Shown piece by piece: positions 1,367 to 27,864 of a stretch of DNA of 64,000 nt. Each line of letters opens with the position of its first letter. Positions within the stretch are counted from its first letter, which is position 1. The stretch comes from Escherichia phage StefiGeyer_Bas88: the sequence record PQ850628.1. One strand, 5' to 3'. Below the pieces are notes generated by a model. It was not told where the DNA came from. It ran no database searches and saw only the letters and a list, made by a program, of their open reading frames with translations. A program made the translations under genes and the position numbers.

Positions 1367-1858
1367 ATGGATAATGTCGCATTGCCACCGATACAACTGA
1401 GCTTAAGCCCAGAAGGGATGGAATTCATCATGAAGCATGAAGGTATGAGAACTCGTGCTTACCAAGATTCCGCAGGTATCTGGACGATATGTGTTGGGGC
1501 TACGCGCGATATGAATGGGTATCCAGTTAGACAGGGATTAACGTATTCTATAGAGGATTGTCTAGCTCTGCTAGATAGAGACACACAAGACTCTGTTCGT
1601 GCTACTCAGAAAAATATAAGGGTTCCTTTGTTTACTAATGAGTTTGATGCTTTAACCTCTTTCAACTTTAATGTTGGCGGTACAGCTCTCGCTACTTCTA
1701 AACTAAGGAAAGTGATCAACGGAGATGTTAGAGGTGATGTTTACTCTGAGTTTTTGCGTTGGGATAAAATAACAGTCAGAGGTGTAAAACAACAGAGTCC
1801 GGGACTTCACAACCGAAGGGTTGCAGAAGCAGACCTATACACCACAGGTAAATACTAA
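1367..1858 (+). CDS. endolysin, T4/P22-type lysozyme (GH24 fold)
   Basis: HEGMRTRAYQDSAGIWTICVGAT and VPLFTNEFDALTSFNFNVG match the catalytic Glu/Asp/Thr region of phage lysozymes; strong RBS GGGAGG. Confidence 0.85.
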   Translation: MDNVALPPIQLSLSPEGMEFIMKHEGMRTRAYQDSAGIWTICVGATRDMNGYPVRQGLTYSIEDCLALLDRDTQDSVRATQKNIRVPLFTNEFDALTSFNFNVGGTALATSKLRKVINGDVRGDVYSEFLRWDKITVRGVKQQSPGLHNRRVAEADLYTTGKY

Positions 1859-1870
1859 TGGAGGTGCCTT

Positions 1871-2674
1871 TTGGCTATTGAAACTACAGCGGTAGTCACT
1901 ACCGATTTAAACCCCCTGTACCCTCGTGACAGGGATTATATTTATGAAGGGGCGGCTCAACTCCGCCTTATCAAACAAGTCTTGATTAACACATTCCCTA
2001 ACATCACTGAACCAGTGAACCTTTCTTCTGAATCCTTTAAGGCTTTGTCAGAGAAAATCACCTTTACTGGCGATGCTATGGATGTTGGTAATCTGATGAT
2101 TAAAAACCTGACTCCGGGCACTGGTGATAAAGATGCTGTAACCAAAGGTCAGATGGAAGCTTTCATGTTGAATTGGATGCAGAACAAACTGTATCGTATT
2201 GGTGCTTACTACATCACTGAAGAAGATATCAACCCCGGTGATTCTAGTTCTCTCGGTTTTGGCTCTTGGGCTAAAGTTACTGGTGTTGTTATGGGTACTG
2301 GTGTTGTCAACCCCGATGGGTCTGTTCCTAACGCCCAACGTGTTGAGTTCCAAGCAGGCGGTACAGGTGGTCGTGTGTTTAATACAGTTCGTACTGAGAA
2401 TATGCCTCTAACTACAATCAATGGTTCTAGTTTCCAAGTTAGCTCCTACTCTCACGCACACAACATTACGATGGGCCGAGGGGATGCTAGTGGTCATAAC
2501 AGCAGCCCTAACTGGTATAGTCCGGGTGGTGGTTATACTCAAGTAACTGACACAAACACTCACTCACACTCAATCTCAGGTTCTGTTAGTTTTGGTTATG
2601 ATGATATTTCTCGTCAACCTATCAACACATTACCGCCATTCCGAGCAGCACATATTTGGAGACGTATTAGCTAA
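1871..2674 (+). CDS. tail fibre-like structural protein (TTG start)
   Basis: GGAGG RBS 6 nt before TTG; Gly/Ser/Thr-rich beta-type sequence in the tail-fibre gene block. Confidence 0.35.
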   Translation: MAIETTAVVTTDLNPLYPRDRDYIYEGAAQLRLIKQVLINTFPNITEPVNLSSESFKALSEKITFTGDAMDVGNLMIKNLTPGTGDKDAVTKGQMEAFMLNWMQNKLYRIGAYYITEEDINPGDSSSLGFGSWAKVTGVVMGTGVVNPDGSVPNAQRVEFQAGGTGGRVFNTVRTENMPLTTINGSSFQVSSYSHAHNITMGRGDASGHNSSPNWYSPGGGYTQVTDTNTHSHSISGSVSFGYDDISRQPINTLPPFRAAHIWRRIS

Positions 2675-2683
2675 GGAGGTAGC

Positions 2684-5600
2684 ATGGCTCTCTATCCAAT
2701 TAAATCACTAGGCGCAGTTGGGGTTATCGCTGACCAAGCACCTACTGACTTAGCACCAAATGCTTTTACTAACGCTATTAATGCTCGGTTTGTTGAGCAG
2801 AGAGTCTTTAAGACGGGGGGCAATGCCCCTCTTTCTTATGTAGACGAAGATAAAGATCTGACTCCTCTCTCATTCCTTTCAATGCCTTTCGACTATTATA
2901 GCGCAGGTAATAGCTTTCTTGTGGTAGGTACAGATAAGAAACTGTATAAACTTACCGACGAGAGTTTAACTGATATCAGCCGTAAGGTTGCTACAGCGAC
3001 AAAGAAAGCATCAGCGACAATTAAGATTTATCCAGTAGTCTCAAATATTGTTCCTAAAGAGACTTCTGTATCTATGAATTTTAACCAGACCAAGATTCTC
3101 GAAGTTGAAGTCACCCCTACAGATGCTCAAAATGCTAATCTAGTTTGGGAAGTAAGCAACTCTTCTTATGGTAGTATTGAAGTTGACCCTACTGACTCCA
3201 AGAAGGCTACCCTAACTTCTAAGTCTGTTGAAGGTAATTTAGTTGTGACAGTGAGCACATCTGATGAATCTATCTCAGCTCAGATTGCAGTTAATATCAT
3301 TGATGGTGATTCAGGTATCTATTTGAGCCAAGACACTTTGACTATGCGTAAAGGTGGTACATCAACCCTTACAGCAATTACAGGCAAACCATCTGTAACT
3401 TGGTCTTCCTCTAACCCATCCTTAGTTTCTGTTTCTCCTAATGCTAATACAAAGACAGTTGTTCTTACAGCTCTTGGAGAAGGACAGGTAACTATAACTG
3501 CTGATAATGGAACAAAGACTGCATCTTGTACAGTAACAGCAATACCTCAAATTGATAGCATCACATTAAGTCAGACAGACATTCAAATGAGTCGTGGTAC
3601 TCAGTACATCTTAACTGCAACAGTTAGTCCAGCTAACGCACCCAACCAAACAATCACTTGGACTTCTTCTAATACCAACATTGCTACAGTAAGTGGTACA
3701 GGTACAGAAGCTACAATAACTGGATTGCTTGCGGGGTATACAGAGATTACAGCAGTTACAGCGGAAGGAGGTCGTTCAGCAGTTTGTACTGTACGTGTTG
3801 ATTTATCTTCTCGTCTGGCAAGTAGGGCTATGTCAGCAATGACTATCACTACAGAAGATCCTGTAGAAGAACCAGTGGTTGGCTCAGAAGAAGTTACTTA
3901 TTTTGACGCTGATACAATTGGCATTGATACAACAGGGATGGCGGAAGGAAACAACTTCTACGACTACTCTAACGTCATGGACTTGGAAGGTTTTGGTAGA
4001 GCAGCAATGCTTGCTAATGATCCACCTTTGACTGGAGTTACTCTTGATGTTATTGATGCCTCTCTTGATGTAGGTGAAGAGATTGTTATCACAGCTACAG
4101 CATCTCCTACTGGAAGCTATACTTACAAGTGGACAGTTGATAAGAGTGGTTATGTTTCTACTACTTCTACAACTGACTCAACTTTGAAACTTACTGCTAT
4201 TCGTAAGGGTGAGGTTAAAGTGACTTGTACTGTAAGCCAGATGGTTCAGAAAGACTATGATGCGTTTGAAGATTATCCTTGGTATCATGCGATCATCTCT
4301 AACTGTGCAGTAGCAACTACTCACTACGAAACTCCTCAGGTTAAGGAATTCGATTCTGAATACTTCACTGATCTTCCGGGATGGGGCGAGCAGACGGTTG
4401 TTGATGCAGATGGTAATCCTTCTGTTAAGAAGTATAACTGGAAATGTGAACGAGTGAGAGCTTTTAACAATAGATTGTTTGCTCTGAATATGAGAGAGTC
4501 TAATGCCTCTGGTGTTACTACTCACTACCCTCTTCGTTTGCGTTGGTCTAACTTTGCAGAGGAAAACAAAGCCCCTCAGCTTTGGGATGATTATGCATAT
4601 GACCGAGCAGTGAGTTCTGACCTAGCAGCTAACATCGTAGGACAGACAGAAGCTCTTGAGAACGGTTATGCAGGATATATTGATTTGGCTGACTCTAATG
4701 GTAGTTTGTTAGATGTTCTTCCTCTGAAAGATTATCTGTTCGTTTACACTGAGTTTGAAACTTATATCGGCTCTCCTACCAACAACACCTATCAGCCTTT
4801 GATGTTTAAAAAGCTGTTTAACGATTCAGGGATACTTGCTCCTGAGTGTGTGGTGGAAGTTGAAGGTGGTCACTTTGTGGTAACTCAGAACGACGTCATT
4901 CTACACAATGGTGCTTCTAAGAAATCTATTGCTTCTAACCGAGTGAAGAATATGATCATTAATGAGATTTGTCTGGTGAACCCAATTGCTACACGAGTTC
5001 ATCTTCATCAGGATAAGAAAGAAGTATGGGTTCTTTATGTAGGTCCGGGTGAGCCTAAGGAAAGTTTTGCCTGTACTAAAGCAGCAGTATGGAATTATGA
5101 GTTCGATACTTGGTCTTTCCGTACGATTCCTTACTCTTACTGTATTGGTCTGGTTGATCCTCCGGTTCTGGAACGTGGTCCTATCTGGGCTGATTTCCAA
5201 GAGATCACTTGGGATGACCCTTCGATTGACAAACTAGTGTGGAGAAAAGATGCAACTAACTTCCGTCAGCGAGTTACAATCATAGGTTCTTTCTTGAAAG
5301 GATTTTACCAAGTTGATATAGGAGCTTTGGATTATATCTATGACAGAACAAATGATGTGGTTATAGAGAAGCCTCTGGAAATGAGACTAGAGAGAACGGG
5401 GATTGATTTTGATAACGTCACTAATGAATGGAATCAGAAACACATTAACCGATTTAGACCTCAAGTAACAGGAACAGGGACTTATACTTTTGAAGCAGGT
5501 GGTAGTCAATTCTCTAATGAGTATGGACACAACCACTCTACTAAAGAGTTTAGGGTTGGTGTAGATCGTCACGTAGCAGTCAGACTGAACCATCCATACC

Positions 5601-12300: not shown

Positions 12301-12312
12301 ATAATGTATATA
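12301..12312 (+). promoter_or_regulatory. phage-specific promoter-like motif TAATGTATATA
   Basis: Motif about 35 nt upstream of the 12347 ATG; same motif recurs in gene-matching orientation at 21691, 21762, 27855 and 32887. Confidence 0.3.
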
Positions 12313-12346: not shown

Positions 12347-15300
12347 ATGGCTAACTTAAAACCGTGGGAAGAAGCTTCTAAAAGCCCTGCGTATTTGAAT
12401 GCCTCCCCTGAGCAACAGTCTCAGATGCGAGAACAGTATAAAGCAGCGGGTGGAACGATTCCTGAGGCTGCTCCAGCTCCTAAACAAGAAGAGCAACCGG
12501 GGTTGGTTGGTGATTTTGCCCAAGGTGTGTCCAACGCTATTCAATCAGGTGGTGCAAACATTGCAGCTAGTGCTGCTAGAGGTATTGGTGGATTAGTTGA
12601 GATTGGAGAAAATCTAGCTGGTACACAGACAAGTTACGGTAAGCGTATTCAAGACAACTCTAAAAACTTACTAGAAGAACGTCTCTCTCAAATCGAAGAT
12701 GGTGTAGGTAAATCTGTAGGTCAGTATGCTGGCGTTGCCGCTGATATTGGTCTTACGGTTGCTAACCCAGCTGTAGCTGCTGCTGTTATTGCAGCTCGTG
12801 AAACAGGTAGAGCTTATGCAGACCAAACTCCAGAAGAGGGTGAAGAGAAGTCTGTTCTTGATGCTGGTTTAGTTGGTGGTGCTAACTTTGCAGCTCAGAA
12901 GATTCTTCCGGGGATGACAGGCACTGCTTCTACTACTCTAGGTCGTGTTGGTCAGAGTGTAGCATCTAACGCAGTGGCTGGTGCTAAAGGTGGTGCTCTT
13001 GTAGGTGCTGCTGAAGCACAGAACAAATATGGTGATGACACTACTCTTGCTAATATTATTGAAGGTGCTGTAGAAGAAGGTGCGATGGGTGCTGCTTACG
13101 GTGGGGCTATTGGTGGGGTTCATGGATTGATAAGTCGTCCTAGTCCTCAAGTCTTTGACCGTACTCCAGAACACGTTAAGACTGACATTGCCGCTGAAGA
13201 TGAAGCTATTCGCTCAGCTAAAAATGCAGACGAACTAAGAGAGGCTTACTCTAAAGCTGATAATGCTAACACAGCTTCTGCTCTTAATCTCCTCGATGAG
13301 AACGGTTTCCGTGTTACTGATGCTGTGGCTATGGACTCTCCTGCTGCTCAGCGTATCCTTAATACTGATCAAAGTCGTGCTGAGAAGGCTGCTACTATTC
13401 TGGAAGATCGTTCTAATGTTCCTGGTTTAAATCCTCTTGCTGCTCCTAATAAGAAGCAAGGTAAAGCTAACGCAGACAACGAACATAACCAGAAACAAGC
13501 TGTGGCAATGAAAGATGCAATGGCTGATTATACAAAAGACAACACTAAATCTTTGTCTGATGTTCTGGATAATCTTGATCGTGAATTAACAGCTGCTCGT
13601 GCCAGTGGTGATTTTACTGGTAGTGCTATGGACATTAAGAATCGTACCCAAGCAGATCGTGATTTTATTGATGCTTATAAGACTTTCTATAACGAAGCTA
13701 ATCGATTCAAAGCTCGTGATGGTGAAGACTTTAATAACTTCATAGAGAAAGCTACAGAGCTTCAGAAACTAGCTGATAATGTATCCCCAGAAATGAAAAC
13801 TGCTATTGGTGGTTTGAAGAAACTTAAAGGAATGCCTGAAGGTTTCAACCCAATCCAAGATGCTTTCACTCTGAATAACACAGCTAAGTTGATGAGTAAT
13901 CAAGACCGTGGTTGGACTTCTCTGACTGCTGATGGTTTTAAAGAAGCTGCTCCTCCAGTTCTGATTAAGAATCCTCTTGGTGCTGCTAAGCATGTTCTTA
14001 ACCGTTTCCGTTCTGACCGTGCTCGCTCTCAACGTGAAAGCCAGCAGGCTGCTAACAGTGAAGCTATTCGTTCTCTTGCTCGTAGTGATATGGAAGTAAC
14101 TCGTGCTCGTGCTCAGGCTGATGAAGCCCGTGCTGCGATGGAGAAAGAACCTGAAGTTGATGACATTAAATTTAAGACTCAAAATGACATGGAAATCGAA
14201 CCGGTTCGGGAGCCTTCTGCTACTACTGTGACGGAAGAAATTTCCTCTCCAGAAACCTCTCCTTTAACTGCTCGTGATTTGGTCGCACAGAGACGTGCTT
14301 TGAAGGAAGCTGAAGCTAGACGTCAAGAAGCCGAAGCTAACAAGGTTCAGGAAGAACCAACTCCAGAGCCAGTTCCACAAGAACCAGTTACTACCGCAAG
14401 GGATTTAGTTGCCCAGCGTCGTGCTGTTGCAGAAGCTCGTAAACGTCAAGAAGCAGAAGAGGCTAGCAAGGCTGCTGAGAGCGTTCCTGAGGAGCCTATC
14501 GTTCAAGCCGAGCCATTACCTACCCGTGCTCCTAAAGCTCCTGAGGTTGAGCCTGAGCCTGTTAAACCAGCTACTGGAATAGAGCGTCTGGCTGCTATGT
14601 CAAGTGCTGCCCGTCAAGCTACTAAAGATCGTGCAGATCGCTTTGCTCGTTCTCTGTATACGGCAGGTGCTAAGGCTAAAGCCACAGCTGAGAACTTCCT
14701 TTCTTATAAAGGTGACCCGAAAGAGTTGATGCGTCGTATCCGTCAGGAAGACCAAGCCAACAATGCTGAACGTCATGCTGAGATGGCTCGTAATCAACTT
14801 GCTTCTCAACAGGGTATTGCTGCTGCTAAGTCACAACGTGTTCGTTCTTCGTTTGCTGATTGGGTTAAGGAACGTGGTCTACCTTCTGATATTGCTACCA
14901 AGGCATTACGTGCTGAGGAGAAAGGTATTGGTGGGAACGTGACTAGTCTAGACTCACTGAAGCGTAGGTCTGAACGTCTGTATCAGAAACAACGTGATGA
15001 TGAATTTAATAGGATGTATGAAGAAGCTCTTGCAGAGAATAAGAAGCTTGATAAAGCTGATGCTCCTAAGCTGGTTGACCAGAAGAAAGAGTTACACAGC
15101 GAAATCAATTTACTTCTTGATGCAGAGCCATTACGTCCAGCTCAAAAAGATGCTATGCGTAAGTTGATGGAAGACTTTGTAGATGGGAAGTTTAAAGCTT
15201 CAGAGAAGGCTGGAAGGGAAGATGCTTTGGAAGTGGGACAGATGAAGGATATATGGGATGGCTTCATTAACACATATAACCGTGAAGTTAACATGTTCAA

Positions 15301-16765
15301 CAAAGCTAATAAGAACTCTCAGTACGAAGCAGCAGCTAAACATTTGCAAGCACGTCAAGAACGTCTTGAGACGCTCCGTAACAGGGCTAAAGCTCGTAGT
15401 GATGCCAAGGCAGCAATAGAGACAGAAAGACAGTCTCTCGAGGCTATAGCGGCTCAGAAATCGGAGATGGAGAACCTGTTGAAAGATTTACCAGAGTCGG
15501 TACGTGAGTCTCAGGAAGGTCGTACACTGAAACAGTTAGCAGCTCACCACGATAAGAACTCTCCTGTACCACCGGAGCGTTTCCGTAGTATTATCGAACG
15601 TATCCACAACGCAGAAAGTGATTACATTGACCGTAAGCGTCGTCTCACTGAAGCGGAAGAAGATGCTCGAGAAGCTAAGTGGAATAAGATGTACGAACAG
15701 GCGGAAGAGATGAACCGTAAATACGACATTGATTCCCGTGTACAACGTGACAAGAAGCTCAAAGAAGCTCAGGAAGCAGAGAACGATCGCATGGCAATAC
15801 AACGCCAACGTGATGACATTCATAAGCGCCTGATGCGTTCTATGGAGGATAAAGGGATTCCTAAAGAAGATGCAGAAGTCTTTGCAGGTTCTTATATGGA
15901 TAACCGTTACTCTCTTCTGGAGAAACCTATGACTCCTACTGAGCACCAGAATGCTCGTTCTCGTATTGAATCTGATATTTCAAAGTTTGCTAAGGATTTT
16001 GAGAAGATGACACCTATCGAGAAAGATATTGCTAAGGCAACTGGTGACATGGATGGTAAGGTAGAGGTGGATGCAGATACTTCGAAAGCTATCGAAGATG
16101 CGAAGAAGGTAGATTCTGAGTTGAAGAAACTTCAGGATGAAGAGTTGGAAATGGAGAAAGTTCGTTCGGCATTGCCAGAAGATGAAAGATCTCAAGCCTC
16201 CTCTGATATACTGGAAAGCATTAAGAAGCAGGAAGATGACTTTGCTAACAAAGCAGAGAAAGCTTTTATCGAAGGGAAAGACTTGCAGGAGCTGGCTAGT
16301 GTAGCAGAGGTTCTAGATAGAGTTCATGGTGCTGACAAGGCTGGTAACAATCGTCGCTTTGTACGTGCATTACAAACTGCTGCGGAGAACAAGAAACAAT
16401 ATGGAGATAATCCAGTGGCTTGGTTTAGTGCTGATGATTACTCTGCTATTGCGAAACTTGGTGCTGCTTCAGCGGGTGGTAACAAATCTAGAGCACTGGA
16501 GAAAATCTTTGGTTCTACTGCTGAACAAGCTAAAGGGAAACTTTTAGGGCGGGATGATGTAGCGAAGATTAGACGTGTGATTGAAGAGAATCCTGATGTT
16601 AAGATTCCTTCTTACAAGACAACTACTCGACAAGAGTATTTACAGTTCTTGGAGAAGTATAATGACGAGGGAGAATTGAAAGTCAAACGTGGTTCTCTGT
16701 CTGACAAGTTGGAGAGGAGTAAGCGTCAAGCTAAACTCCGTGTTAGAGTTCGAGCTAAGGAGTAA
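12347..16765 (+). CDS. giant internal virion/ejection protein with charged coiled-coil core
   Basis: 1472 aa; long E/K/R/A-rich helical region; internal protein repeat TARDLVAQRRA(L/V)..EA..RQEAE; Pro/Glu linker. Confidence 0.45.
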   Translation: MANLKPWEEASKSPAYLNASPEQQSQMREQYKAAGGTIPEAAPAPKQEEQPGLVGDFAQGVSNAIQSGGANIAASAARGIGGLVEIGENLAGTQTSYGKRIQDNSKNLLEERLSQIEDGVGKSVGQYAGVAADIGLTVANPAVAAAVIAARETGRAYADQTPEEGEEKSVLDAGLVGGANFAAQKILPGMTGTASTTLGRVGQSVASNAVAGAKGGALVGAAEAQNKYGDDTTLANIIEGAVEEGAMGAAYGGAIGGVHGLISRPSPQVFDRTPEHVKTDIAAEDEAIRSAKNADELREAYSKADNANTASALNLLDENGFRVTDAVAMDSPAAQRILNTDQSRAEKAATILEDRSNVPGLNPLAAPNKKQGKANADNEHNQKQAVAMKDAMADYTKDNTKSLSDVLDNLDRELTAARASGDFTGSAMDIKNRTQADRDFIDAYKTFYNEANRFKARDGEDFNNFIEKATELQKLADNVSPEMKTAIGGLKKLKGMPEGFNPIQDAFTLNNTAKLMSNQDRGWTSLTADGFKEAAPPVLIKNPLGAAKHVLNRFRSDRARSQRESQQAANSEAIRSLARSDMEVTRARAQADEARAAMEKEPEVDDIKFKTQNDMEIEPVREPSATTVTEEISSPETSPLTARDLVAQRRALKEAEARRQEAEANKVQEEPTPEPVPQEPVTTARDLVAQRRAVAEARKRQEAEEASKAAESVPEEPIVQAEPLPTRAPKAPEVEPEPVKPATGIERLAAMSSAARQATKDRADRFARSLYTAGAKAKATAENFLSYKGDPKELMRRIRQEDQANNAERHAEMARNQLASQQGIAAAKSQRVRSSFADWVKERGLPSDIATKALRAEEKGIGGNVTSLDSLKRRSERLYQKQRDDEFNRMYEEALAENKKLDKADAPKLVDQKKELHSEINLLLDAEPLRPAQKDAMRKLMEDFVDGKFKASEKAGREDALEVGQMKDIWDGFINTYNREVNMFNKANKNSQYEAAAKHLQARQERLETLRNRAKARSDAKAAIETERQSLEAIAAQKSEMENLLKDLPESVRESQEGRTLKQLAAHHDKNSPVPPERFRSIIERIHNAESDYIDRKRRLTEAEEDAREAKWNKMYEQAEEMNRKYDIDSRVQRDKKLKEAQEAENDRMAIQRQRDDIHKRLMRSMEDKGIPKEDAEVFAGSYMDNRYSLLEKPMTPTEHQNARSRIESDISKFAKDFEKMTPIEKDIAKATGDMDGKVEVDADTSKAIEDAKKVDSELKKLQDEELEMEKVRSALPEDERSQASSDILESIKKQEDDFANKAEKAFIEGKDLQELASVAEVLDRVHGADKAGNNRRFVRALQTAAENKKQYGDNPVAWFSADDYSAIAKLGAASAGGNKSRALEKIFGSTAEQAKGKLLGRDDVAKIRRVIEENPDVKIPSYKTTTRQEYLQFLEKYNDEGELKVKRGSLSDKLERSKRQAKLRVRVRAKE

Positions 16766-16772
16766 ACGAGAA

Positions 16773-16811
16773 AAGCCCCCAACCTGAAAAGGAAGGGGGC
16801 TTCTTTATTTC
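16773..16811 (+). terminator. rho-independent terminator ending the + strand late block
   Basis: AGCCCCC...GGGGGCT hairpin followed by TCTTTATTTCT. Confidence 0.5.
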
Positions 16812-16903
16812 TAGCTGCACTTAAAGGTAGCAAATCACCTAAATTTTAAATATTAGAATCCATCGAACTCATCATACATCCCAGTTTTCTTCTTCGAAAT
16901 CAA

Positions 16904-17170
16904 TCATAAGATCTCCCAATCATCTGCAAATAAATCACCTTGAGATGGAACCCATCCGGGCTGTATAATACCTTGAGCATTCTTTAAAACTAAATGAGGG
17001 GCAATATAGAACTGACCTATAATATCAGCTTTTTCATAAAGAGAACCCGGTAGAGCTTCTTCTACTTCATACCCACCTGCTTTAAAGACAAACTGGTTTG
17101 CACCGTTCCATCCAGAGCGGGTGATCTTTTTCCCTTCTTTTACTTTAATAAGCGCTGAACTAAAATCCAT
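16904..17170 (-). CDS. DUF2829/Tad2-like small protein (candidate anti-Thoeris signal sponge)
   Basis: 88 aa; MDFSSALIKVKEGKKITRSGWNG at the N-terminus and PGWVPSQGDLFADDWEIL at the C-terminus resemble the DUF2829 family signature as I recall it; AGGAGA RBS. Confidence 0.45.
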   Translation of the reverse strand: MDFSSALIKVKEGKKITRSGWNGANQFVFKAGGYEVEEALPGSLYEKADIIGQFYIAPHLVLKNAQGIIQPGWVPSQGDLFADDWEIL

Positions 17171-17178
17171 TTGTTCTC

Positions 17179-17481
17179 CTAGATTAAATCATAATACTTA
17201 ATAATATCGGAGAGCTTAAACTCTCGAATGTCATTCTTGTCGTTGTCCCAAGCGGTCATTATCCAACAAGGTTTGCCCCCATTATGATAACGGGAAGAAG
17301 CAACTGAGGTTCGTATAGGAATAACGGAGCGGTCTGCAACTTCGCCTCTCCAATTACGATAGCTAAAGCGAAGAGTTTGTGTCGTAGATACTTGATCATT
17401 TGTATTTTCCTTGTTCATAGATTCAAAGACTTCCTTCTCTTCAGGAGTCTCTAGATTTTTTAAATTCGCGTCTTGCATCAT
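17179..17481 (-). CDS. hypothetical protein (start uncertain)
   Basis: ORF overlaps the HNH gene 3' end; internal ATG starts likely; no motif recognised. Confidence 0.3.
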   Translation of the reverse strand: MMQDANLKNLETPEEKEVFESMNKENTNDQVSTTQTLRFSYRNWRGEVADRSVIPIRTSVASSRYHNGGKPCWIMTAWDNDKNDIREFKLSDIIKYYDLI

Positions 17482-17845
17482 TCTCTTCCTTAGTTTTAAT
17501 CTTATGGCAAGGTTCTTTACACAAGACTTGAAAGCCATCTACCTCAACCAAAGCTCTCTCAATGATTTCATCCCAAGATGCTTCATGGTCCACTGGAACA
17601 ATAGGATTAATGTGGTCAACAGCTACTTCCTTAAGAGGAGAGTCATTACCACACATGGCACACTTGTAGTGCATTGCCAGCTTGCCAGTCTTAGGGTTGA
17701 TCTTACGTTCTGTCTGAGCTTCTTTGAGAGCATCAAACATAGGCTTCCACTTTCTAGTCAGAGAACGAATCCCTGACTTGATGAAGGAATTGTAACGTGC
17801 TTCAGTCCACTGGTTTGAACATCTTGTTTTCTCAGCCTTCGCCAT
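17441..17845 (-). CDS. HNH endonuclease
   Basis: MHYKCAMCGNDSPLKEVAVDHINPIVP...QVLCKEPCHKIK: Cys pair, DH, N and CxxCH of the HNH motif; ATG at 17845. Confidence 0.65.
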   Translation of the reverse strand: MAKAEKTRCSNQWTEARYNSFIKSGIRSLTRKWKPMFDALKEAQTERKINPKTGKLAMHYKCAMCGNDSPLKEVAVDHINPIVPVDHEASWDEIIERALVEVDGFQVLCKEPCHKIKTKEENDARREFKKSRDS

Positions 17846-18023
17846 AACCAACATCCATCTCAGCGTCTTCCCAAATACGTTTGTTAATACGATGTGATTC
17901 TTTTTCAGCACGAGGGATACGTCCAGTACGACGATCAAATGCTTGATGTTTAATCTTCTGGTCTTTGCGAGACTCACGATTAGAGGAATTTTCATCATAC
18001 GAACGATAGTCAAATTTACCCAT
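17832..18023 (-). CDS. small highly charged protein
   Basis: RBS AAGGAT before ATG at 18023; 63 aa rich in R/K/E/D. Confidence 0.3.
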   Translation of the reverse strand: MGKFDYRSYDENSSNRESRKDQKIKHQAFDRRTGRIPRAEKESHRINKRIWEDAEMDVGYGEG

Positions 18024-21690: not shown

Positions 21691-21701
21691 ATATACATTA
21701 C
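21691..21701 (-). promoter_or_regulatory. phage promoter-like motif (GTAATGTATAT) facing SSB-like gene
   Basis: Motif on - strand about 60 nt upstream of the 21632 start. Confidence 0.3.
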
Positions 21702-21761: not shown

Positions 21762-21774
21762 GTAATGTATATAT
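21762..21774 (+). promoter_or_regulatory. inverted copy of promoter-like motif
   Basis: GTAATGTATATAT on + strand, forming an inverted pair with 21691..21701. Confidence 0.25.
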
Positions 21775-27854: not shown

Positions 27855-27864
27855 GTATACATTA
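27855..27864 (-). promoter_or_regulatory. phage promoter-like motif TAATGTATAC
   Basis: Between PhoH stop and next gene start, - strand orientation. Confidence 0.3.

Follow-up and report, generated by a model that had tools for sequence, protein, structure and literature searches.

A Tad2-family (DUF2829) gene in a variable slot of Escherichia phage StefiGeyer_Bas88, a candidate sponge for Thoeris signals

The stretch of DNA analysed here, called the window, comprises 64,000 nucleotides (nt) of Escherichia phage StefiGeyer_Bas88 (PQ850628.1), a phiEco32-like (Gordonclarkvirinae) podophage of E. coli belonging to the C3-morphotype group. The original prediction, made from the letters alone, placed in it a small DUF2829 protein related to Tad2, an inhibitor of the Thoeris defence system, and suggested that it is a sponge for the Thoeris signal. 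We found that the gene is a genuine member of the Tad2 family, and the results presented below indicate that it probably encodes such a sponge. The gene lies at the following position.

16904..17170, minus strand: Tad2-like (PF11195/DUF2829) coding sequence, identified from its open reading frame (ORF), Pfam, matches to PDB chains, an AlphaFold2 (AF2) model searched with Foldseek, and the ratio of nonsynonymous to synonymous substitution rates (dN/dS)

A Tad2-family protein by sequence and fold

In the ORF listing of the window, the gene is a single ATG-start ORF of 88 amino acids (aa), whereas the plus-strand translation of 16904-17170 is riddled with stops. The encoded protein (MDFSSALIKVKEGKKITRSGWNGANQFVFKAGGYEVEEALPGSLYEKADIIGQFYIAPHLVLKNAQGIIQPGWVPSQGDLFADDWEIL) has a mass of 9.7 kDa and is acidic, with an isoelectric point (pI) of 4.94 and a net charge of -3. 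Its N-terminal block reads M1-x-F3-x-x-A6-L7-x-x-x-K11-x-G13-K14-K15-x-x-R18-x-G20-W21-N22-G23, and its C-terminal block reads W73-x-P75-S76-Q77-x-D79-L80-x-A82-D83-D84-W85-E86-I87. The 88-aa protein and both of these blocks are present exactly as originally quoted; the strand, which was not given there, is minus.

The protein matched the Pfam profile PF11195 over its whole length (residues 1-88 against positions 1-73 of the 73 in the profile) with E=5.6e-23 and 81.7 bits, far over the curated gathering cutoff of 25 bits, and all 57 of the homologues found carry the same domain. The DUF2829 assignment, for which a search with a profile hidden Markov model had been proposed as the check, is therefore confirmed. 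In a phmmer search against PDB chains, SptTad2 was the best match, and SptTad2, ModTad2, SPO1 Tad2 and HgmTad2 were recovered with E values of 2.5e-11 to 4e-9, the range extending to 7e-8 when pdAcrIIA7 is included. The same program, applied exhaustively to 1.84 billion cluster representatives with a limit of E <= 1e-3, returned 2,771 relatives, and C-terminal domains of larger fusions are frequent among them. The matching PHROG families, 1048 and 872, are both of unknown function, while PADLOC and NCBIfam gave zero matches for this protein, an uninformative result given that these libraries model defence or bacterial proteins rather than anti-defence proteins.

To compare the fold with solved Tad2 structures, a check also proposed with the original prediction, an AF2 single-chain model was built from 56 homologues (the clade alignment). 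The model had a mean predicted local distance difference test (pLDDT) score of 95.2 and a predicted template-modelling (pTM) score of 0.80, and it consists of the elements H3-11, E16-18, E27-31, E34-36, H44-47, E54-56, E59-63, E69-71, H77-81 and E85-87 (H, helix; E, strand). This topology, alpha1 followed by an antiparallel sheet with alpha2/alpha3, is the order described for SPO1 Tad2. Foldseek returned 24 significant matches in the PDB, all of them Tad2 structures, with template-modelling (TM) scores of 0.65-0.81; the best was ModTad2 bound to His-ADPR (ADPR, ADP-ribose), with an E value of 5e-8 and a TM score of 0.78, and the next match after the Tad2 structures had an E value of 0.5. Tad2 structures are thus the only significant matches in the PDB, in agreement with the predicted fold. 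Three positions of helix alpha1, F3, A6 and L7, show conservation of at least 90% within the clade, which is compatible with a tetramer interface and is no proof of one.

The protein was compared with the characterised members of the family, among them SPO1 Tad2 (gp34.65; PDB 8SME/8SMF/8SMG). The two share the Pfam family, their length (89 aa against 88 aa here), the order of secondary-structure elements, a short insertion (24 against 23 aa) and the pocket core, and both are acidic proteins of the single-pocket type without features for binding cyclic dinucleotides (CDNs). However, they are ~33-35% identical, the contacts to adenine and water are changed here, the window protein has a four-residue KAGG hairpin after beta2, and F44 of SPO1 Tad2, which occludes the second pocket, has no aligned counterpart. 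In addition, SPO1 is a Bacillus myophage, whereas the window belongs to a podophage of a Gram-negative host. ModTad2, or MoTad2 (Myroides odoratus prophage; PDB 8V3E, 9EIB), resembles the window protein in length, in its 24-aa insertion and in the W/N/G/W/S/D core, but it binds His-ADPR and 2' cyclic ADP-ribose (2'cADPR), not 3'cADPR, takes cUMP in a second pocket, and has the pocket lining T/D/A/S in place of N/Q/Q/G. HgmTad2 (identical to the metagenomic AcrIIA7; PDB 8KBI-8KBM, 8WJC) and SptTad2 (8WJD) share the core fold, with TM scores of up to 0.81, and the pocket residues for gcADPR (glycocyclic ADP-ribose, the 1''-3' and 1''-2' forms of which are 3'cADPR and 2'cADPR). They differ in that an insertion domain of 35-41 aa forms a second pocket for cGG/cGAMP, whereas the insertion in the window protein is 23 aa; moreover, HgmTad2 is basic and a reported binder of trans-activating CRISPR RNA (tracrRNA), and the window protein is acidic. 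The nearest counterparts are DUF2829 genes of enterobacterial phages (the Murrayvirus-type IME_EC2, sortsyn and EF2-1; TR2, Bas86/Bas87, EK010, NC-B and TH43), whose products are 62-95% identical to it and have the same N/Q/Q/G lining. Like the window gene, these orthologues occupy the final or almost final position of their operon, beside a convergent junction, and they are annotated as hypothetical, as DUF2829, or as 'Thoeris anti-defense 2-like domain-containing protein'.

The predicted pocket and its selective constraint

The sequences of the characterised Tad2 proteins were taken from HMMER alignments, their numbering was checked against the residue names used in the papers, and all published contacts were mapped onto the window protein. 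The predicted pocket core, W21, N22, G23, W73, S76 and D79, is kept in full, and in the alignment it corresponds to W25/N26/G27/W73/S76/D79 of SPO1 Tad2 and W21/N22/G23/W87/S90/D93 of HgmTad2. In SPO1 Tad2, the contacts W25, N26, W73, S76 and D79 hold the riboses and diphosphate of the ligand (10.1101/2023.05.01.538930), and in HgmTad2 the W21A/N22A and S90A/T92A/D93A mutants lost gcADPR binding (10.1101/2023.11.15.567273). The core is invariant in the 56-sequence clade alignment and nearly so in 147 representatives of the family, where W21 was found in 147, N22 in 143, W73 in 146, S76 in 136 and D79 in 146.

The side of the pocket facing adenine is different. Relative to SPO1 Tad2, it shows T78 replaced by G78, D67 by Q66, H71 by Q70, T65 by N64 and I63 by L62. 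Position 78 is variable across the 147 representatives, where glycine is the commonest residue with 78 sequences, followed by alanine with 23, serine with 18 and threonine with 17, and ModTad2 itself has S; the threonine at this position bears on specificity, not on membership of the family. Within the clade to which the protein belongs, the combination N64/Q66/Q70/G78 (NQQG) shows conservation of 90% or more, and it was present in 30 of the 147 nearest representatives. None of the characterised members has it, the corresponding residues being TDHT in SPO1 Tad2, TDAS in ModTad2, SSVT in SptTad2 and ADVT in HgmTad2.

Selective constraint was estimated from six orthologues of related phages. Pairwise dN/dS values ranged from 0.07 to 0.16, with dS up to 0.62, indicating strong purifying selection. 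Across these six sequences, 17 amino acid positions vary, and none of the 12 pocket positions is among them.

The variable slot and its genomic setting

The 4 kb around the gene matched 107 phage records, nearly all of them Gordonclarkvirinae Escherichia phages, with identities of 95-96% for ECBP2, TH34 and TH42, 92.9% for TH43, and 87-89% for NC-B, Bas86, Bas87, EK010 and SU7. The gene itself is far rarer. A tblastn search with a floor of 60% identity recovered it from only 14 phage records. Its carriers among the Gordonclarkvirinae are seven of ~100 related genomes (NC-B, TH43, Bas87, E20-1, EK010, Bas86 and ShigP1), and it also occurs in the unrelated 42-kb podophages IME_EC2, sortsyn and EF2-1 and in the N4-like Salmonella phage TR2. 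The closest relatives by backbone, ECBP2, TH34 and TH42, were not among the carriers in this search, and the slot of ECBP2 contains no Tad2 gene. Of the other phages compared, SU7 also has an empty slot, and Bas90 and ShigP1 have other small genes in it.

Junctions were defined by anchored string comparison, since a MAFFT alignment of the slot misplaced them. Two features mark the edge of the slot in the window.

16913..16918, minus strand: TGGGAG within the last Tad2 codons, the repeat partner of TAGGAG (17181-17176), found by junction comparison
16872..16907, minus strand: mini-ORF of 11 codons, MIDFEEENWDV and stop, whose ATG overlaps the Tad2 stop (TTATGA), read from the sequence

Phages with and without the gene differ by a precise indel that has a GGAG direct repeat at its borders. 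At Tad2-positive junctions, TAGGAG is followed by AACAAATG, the tad2 gene and GATTGGGAG, after which the sequence continues with RTYTTATGA; at the empty sites, TAGGAG is followed directly by GTCTTATGA in ECBP2 and by ATTTTATGA in SU7. The indel may be read as a gain or a loss, in either direction. Small genes are exchanged at this slot, and the Tad2-like gene behaves as an accessory gene, a pattern typical of anti-defence genes.

Other occupants of the slot were noted in two relatives. In SkaterBoy_Bas90 (locus 2539-2820), a 53-aa acidic helical DUF7438 protein (PF24219, phrog_653) replaces Tad2 and is accompanied by a 35-aa phrog_24805 gene; the DUF7438 protein is a candidate for an alternative accessory or anti-defence gene. 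In ShigP1 (locus 2501-3183), the Tad2 homologue has an insertion region that is ~14 residues shorter and a reading frame that runs on into the mini-ORF (ending in DDWEVYMIDFEEENWDV and stop), and an extra gene for a 121-aa HNH endonuclease follows the shortened Tad2. A different arrangement is found in Salmonella phage vB_SalP_TR2 (locus 1520-3434), where the 62.5%-identical homologue belongs to a group of small genes at the end of an operon that also includes another DUF2829 gene and a PF13876 gene. PF13876 is the Acb4 family of anti-CBASS sponges, which are often fused to Tad2 (PMC12265669). From its gene content, this TR2 cluster, which lies beside the virion RNA polymerase gene, looks like an island of anti-signalling sponges.

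The mini-ORF is intact, with synonymous changes only, in ECBP2, NC-B, TH43 and ShigP1; it is altered in Bas86 by an in-frame 6-nt deletion and a GTG start and in SU7 by a premature stop, and it was not found in Bas87 or EK010. The 35-aa ORF of Bas90 that matches phrog_24805 ends in SEENWDV and stop. Because its C terminus equals that of this gene, the mini-ORF, which is putatively coding, is probably a truncated remnant of it, and the idea that the mini-ORF is a collapsed second copy of Tad2 was dropped for the same reason. In the window, the spacer between the mini-ORF and the terminator downstream (16810-16871) measures 71 nt, of which 36 nt are an insertion when compared with Bas86. Its length is 36 nt in NC-B and reaches 154 nt in ECBP2 and 164 nt in TH43; in ECBP2 and SU7, ~130 bp of it are unrelated sequence, in which a 39-aa ORF is possible.

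The signals and neighbouring genes around the slot are as follows.

17176..17180, minus strand: ribosome-binding site (RBS) AGGAG, read from the sequence, with a 5-nt spacer to the Tad2-like ATG
16771..16809, both strands: bidirectional intrinsic terminator, a GC-rich hairpin GCCCCC-N14-GGGGGC with flanking A-tract/T-tract, from the sequence, the SU7 annotation and the alignment
17179..17481 (longest ORF to 17538), minus strand: WYL-domain gene, from Pfam, PADLOC, AF2/Foldseek and the annotation in relatives
17832-18023, minus strand: stretch listed alongside the HNH ORF 17441-18013
12302-12310 (plus strand), 21692-21700 (minus strand), 21763-21771 (plus strand), 27856-27864 (minus strand): exact copies of the gp36-sigma element, from an exact motif search
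21692..21700, minus strand: the nearest of these upstream on the same strand, an exact match to TAATGTATA and the candidate middle-class promoter of the Tad2-like cluster

The Tad2-like gene is the final gene of a leftward cluster of sigma-factor and nucleotide-metabolism genes. Upstream of it on the minus strand lie, in order, the WYL gene, an HNH endonuclease, a 63-aa ORF, a 5'-3' exonuclease, a deoxynucleoside monophosphate (dNMP) kinase and a phage extracytoplasmic function (ECF)-type sigma factor. The original prediction had put the gene next to HNH endonuclease and exonuclease genes; both are indeed nearby on the same strand, but the immediate neighbour is the small WYL-like gene. The RBS overlaps the TAG stop (17181-17179) of that gene and is identical in sequence in every Tad2-positive relative, and the overlap implies that the Tad2-like gene is translationally coupled to the WYL gene and co-transcribed with it. 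The terminator marks the end of the Tad2-like transcript and is shared with a convergent late gene for a 1472-aa protein; at the corresponding site, the SU7 annotation gives a terminator on both strands, and the hairpin is invariant in a four-phage alignment. A simple terminator scan missed it because its loop exceeds 8 nt, and the scan for sigma-70 promoters and terminators was in general of little use, with matches at only ~2x the shuffle expectation. The 1472-aa protein (12347-16765, plus strand), a charge-rich chain of low complexity, bears the label 'putative liver stage antigen' in related phages, and an exact promoter element of the gp36 type stands before its gene.

In phiEco32, the sigma-factor/nucleotide-metabolism cluster is transcribed leftward as part of the middle class, and promoters of the phage sigma factor consist of a single element, tAATGTAtA (PMC8948821). 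The phiEco32 gp36-sigma element TAATGTATA occurs in four exact copies in the window, all of them intergenic, and the copies at 21692 (minus) and 21763 (plus) form a divergent pair. Matches with one mismatch were at chance level (19 against 18.9 expected), and only the exact intergenic copies were used.

The WYL protein is ~100 aa long from the start annotated in relatives and is a stand-alone domain without a helix-turn-helix. It matched the Pfam WYL profile above the cutoff (E=3.1e-5) as well as a PADLOC WYL model, and its AF2 core (pLDDT ~90) matched the WYL domains of PafBC, BrxR and CapW in Foldseek. The core resembles the single-stranded DNA-sensing WYL domains of PafBC, BrxR, CapW and DriD, regulators of BREX, CBASS or DNA-damage responses. 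Only 17 homologues were found among 5.8 billion proteins, mostly on contigs as large as phage genomes and with Escherichia phage FS2B among them, and a core of ~65 aa is highly conserved. The gene was present in all relatives examined (annotated in ECBP2, SU7, Bas86, Bas87, EK010, ShigP1 and Bas90) and lies outside the variable slot. The protein could be a ligand decoy against WYL-controlled defence, or a regulator of the phage. The next gene, the HNH endonuclease, is listed as a 190-aa TTG-start ORF (17441-18013, minus strand) and probably begins at the ATG used in relatives, giving 134 aa (MAKAEKTRC...). The window lacks a further HNH endonuclease gene that ECBP2 (locus 4671-5114) carries between its genes for the exonuclease and the dNMP kinase, a difference that accounts for part of the 91% coverage of ECBP2 in the 4-kb comparison.

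Proposed function, rival readings and meaning

We consider it probable, by analogy with the characterised members, that the gene product is a tetrameric sponge of the Tad2 family with one type of pocket, which would trap an ADPR-type signal made by a protein that carries a TIR (Toll/interleukin-1 receptor) domain, likeliest 3'cADPR and/or 2'cADPR. Four copies of the 9.7-kDa chain would assemble in the manner of SPO1 Tad2, HgmTad2 and ModTad2, Tad2 tetramers being built as two interlocked V-shaped dimers. Two pockets would form at protomer interfaces from both GWNG loops (W21, N22, G23) and W73-x-x-S76-x-x-D79, and during infection they would capture the messenger derived from ADP-ribose that the host TIR protein (ThsB) produces. 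With the signal trapped, the Thoeris effector would stay off and the phage could complete its cycle. A protein of this single-pocket type would have no second pocket for CDNs. The gene would be expressed from the 3' end of the leftward sigma-factor/nucleotide-metabolism unit, as in the middle class of phiEco32, and as an optional accessory it would be gained or lost through the precise indel at the slot. The Tad2 interpretation given in the original prediction is thus supported, with activity and ligand proposed by analogy.

The host species does offer a target for a sponge of this kind, given that type VI Thoeris occurs in E. coli and that Tad2 proteins bind its signal. TIR-based Thoeris systems now fall into many types, and their signals include 3'cADPR for types I and V, His-ADPR for type II, N7-cADPR for type IV, 2'cADPR for type VI and cADPR for types VII and VIII, and native type VI systems are found in E. 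coli S1 and ACN001 (10.64898/2025.12.03.692087). SPO1 Tad2 binds both 2'cADPR and 3'cADPR (10.1101/2023.05.01.538930), as does HgmTad2 (10.1101/2023.11.15.567273), and MoTad2 binds 2'cADPR (10.64898/2025.12.03.692087).

Several observations weigh against this proposal. The threonine that contacts adenine (T78 in SPO1 Tad2, T92 in HgmTad2) is a glycine here, and the water-coordinating D67 and H71 of SPO1 Tad2 are both glutamine, so that affinity or specificity could differ. As far as could be checked in the literature, no member of the N64/Q66/Q70/G78 subfamily has been characterised, and because the adenine-side lining differs from that of every structurally characterised member, the assignment to 3'cADPR/2'cADPR is tentative. 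ModTad2, one of the five homologues first tested, did not inhibit type I Thoeris, and family membership is therefore no guarantee of 3'cADPR binding. With regard to expression, the gene would be of the middle class rather than immediate-early, judging from phiEco32 alone, and a terminator-like hairpin (20868-20851) lies between the candidate promoter at 21692..21700 and the gene, for which reason read-through or co-transcription with the middle cluster is inferred.

The differences in the lining raise the question of whether the protein is a Tad2 sponge tuned by its NQQG residues to another ligand, such as His-ADPR (type II), N7-cADPR (type IV), cADPR (types VII/VIII) or a new signal. The lining occurs in 30 of the 147 nearest representatives and in none of the four characterised members, and the best structural match is the His-ADPR-bound ModTad2; nevertheless, the core that contacts riboses and phosphates is identical to that of gcADPR binders, and the Foldseek E values for ModTad2, SptTad2, HgmTad2 and SPO1 Tad2 are too close to separate (5e-8 to 1e-6). 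Scores of structure and of sequence alike do not clearly favour ModTad2 over the type I binders. Tad2 members inhibit Thoeris types I, II and IV, some of them specifically, and the family as a whole also covers CBASS and Pycsar (PMC12393519). Two of five tested type VI systems yielded no detectable 2'cADPR, so another signal is possible there (10.64898/2025.12.03.692087), whereas only ~1% of Tad2 proteins were estimated by Li et al. to be without a functional gcADPR site (10.1101/2023.11.15.567273) and SPO1 Tad2 does not bind canonical cADPR (10.1101/2023.05.01.538930). We regard a change of ligand as rather unlikely on balance. The bolder form of this idea, that the NQQG subfamily recognises a TIR-derived signal outside the known Tad2 ligands, for example cADPR (type VII/VIII) or a type VI signal other than 2'cADPR, is more doubtful still, but if it were true, the protein would be a ready affinity reagent for a new immune messenger, as ModTad2 was for His-ADPR.

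It seems very unlikely that the interface of the V-shaped dimer serves in addition as a sponge for CBASS CDNs, as in HgmTad2 and SptTad2, or for the Pycsar signals cUMP/cCMP, as in MoTad2. Several Tad2 proteins do have a second pocket at that interface, the top sequence match SptTad2 binds cGG, and ModTad2, with an equally short insertion (24 aa), binds cUMP there (PMC12393519). However, the window protein has 23 aa inserted between beta2 and the core strand that follows, comparable to the 24 aa of SPO1 Tad2, which does not bind CDNs, rather than to the 35 aa of SptTad2 or the 41 aa of HgmTad2. Mutation of R31, S47, F70 and N85 in HgmTad2 abolishes cGG/cGAMP binding (10.1101/2023.11.15.567273), and none of these four residues is kept in the window protein, which has E35 (or A31 by position), E46, I56 and P71, the last being invariant in the clade. 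With its short insertion and none of the four essential residues, a dual CDN sponge was judged unlikely. That the fold is kept without any anti-defence role in this phage, as in a decaying passenger gene, is highly improbable: the gene is dispensable and absent from most relatives, and apparent gene remnants lie in the same slot, but the strong purifying selection, the invariant pocket, the intact RBS and translational coupling, and the full-length ORF in seven related phages as well as in unrelated Murrayvirus and Schitoviridae phages all argue otherwise. Hardly credible is a role like that of AcrIIA7, in which tracrRNA would be bound in a basic groove and assembly of the Cas9 ribonucleoprotein blocked, or a more general RNA-binding function. 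E. coli is not known to carry type II CRISPR-Cas. The protein does share family and fold with AcrIIA7/HgmTad2, and a 2026 study reported that a head-less AcrIIA7 hijacks tracrRNA through five basic groove residues (K58, K66, K71, K93 and R101 in pdAcrIIA7 numbering; PMC13133391). Only one of these five is kept here, K11 being retained while K19, K24, K46 and R54 are replaced by S19, A24, Y45 and Q53, and the pI of 4.94 with a net charge of -3 contrasts with the pI of 8.9 of HgmTad2, whose inhibition of Cas9 was moreover not reproduced by Li et al. (10.1101/2023.11.15.567273). The acidic character and the single groove residue led us to judge this reading unlikely.

The sponge for 3'cADPR and/or 2'cADPR is thus the reading that we prefer. 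The Tad2 family is already known, and relatives of the gene carry automated DUF2829 or Thoeris labels. The literature that we searched contained no discussion of the gene in this phage group and nothing linking Tad2 with Kuravirus or Thoeris with Gordonclarkvirinae, and it described no anti-signalling gene for the Gordonclarkvirinae; neither Thoeris nor Tad2 is mentioned in the BASEL paper that covers Bas86/Bas87. The result is a confirmation and small extension of a well-described family and leaves current understanding unchanged. Should the gene prove active, it would bring an anti-Thoeris function to the Gordonclarkvirinae, a group that is of interest for therapy and known for resisting many defence systems. 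Since the gene is naturally present or absent among near-isogenic phages (in the BASEL collection, Bas86 and Bas87 with it and Bas90 without), its effect on host range can be measured directly on Thoeris-bearing E. coli. The ligand of the NQQG pocket, once determined, would help the sequence of a Tad2 protein to predict which TIR signal is evaded.

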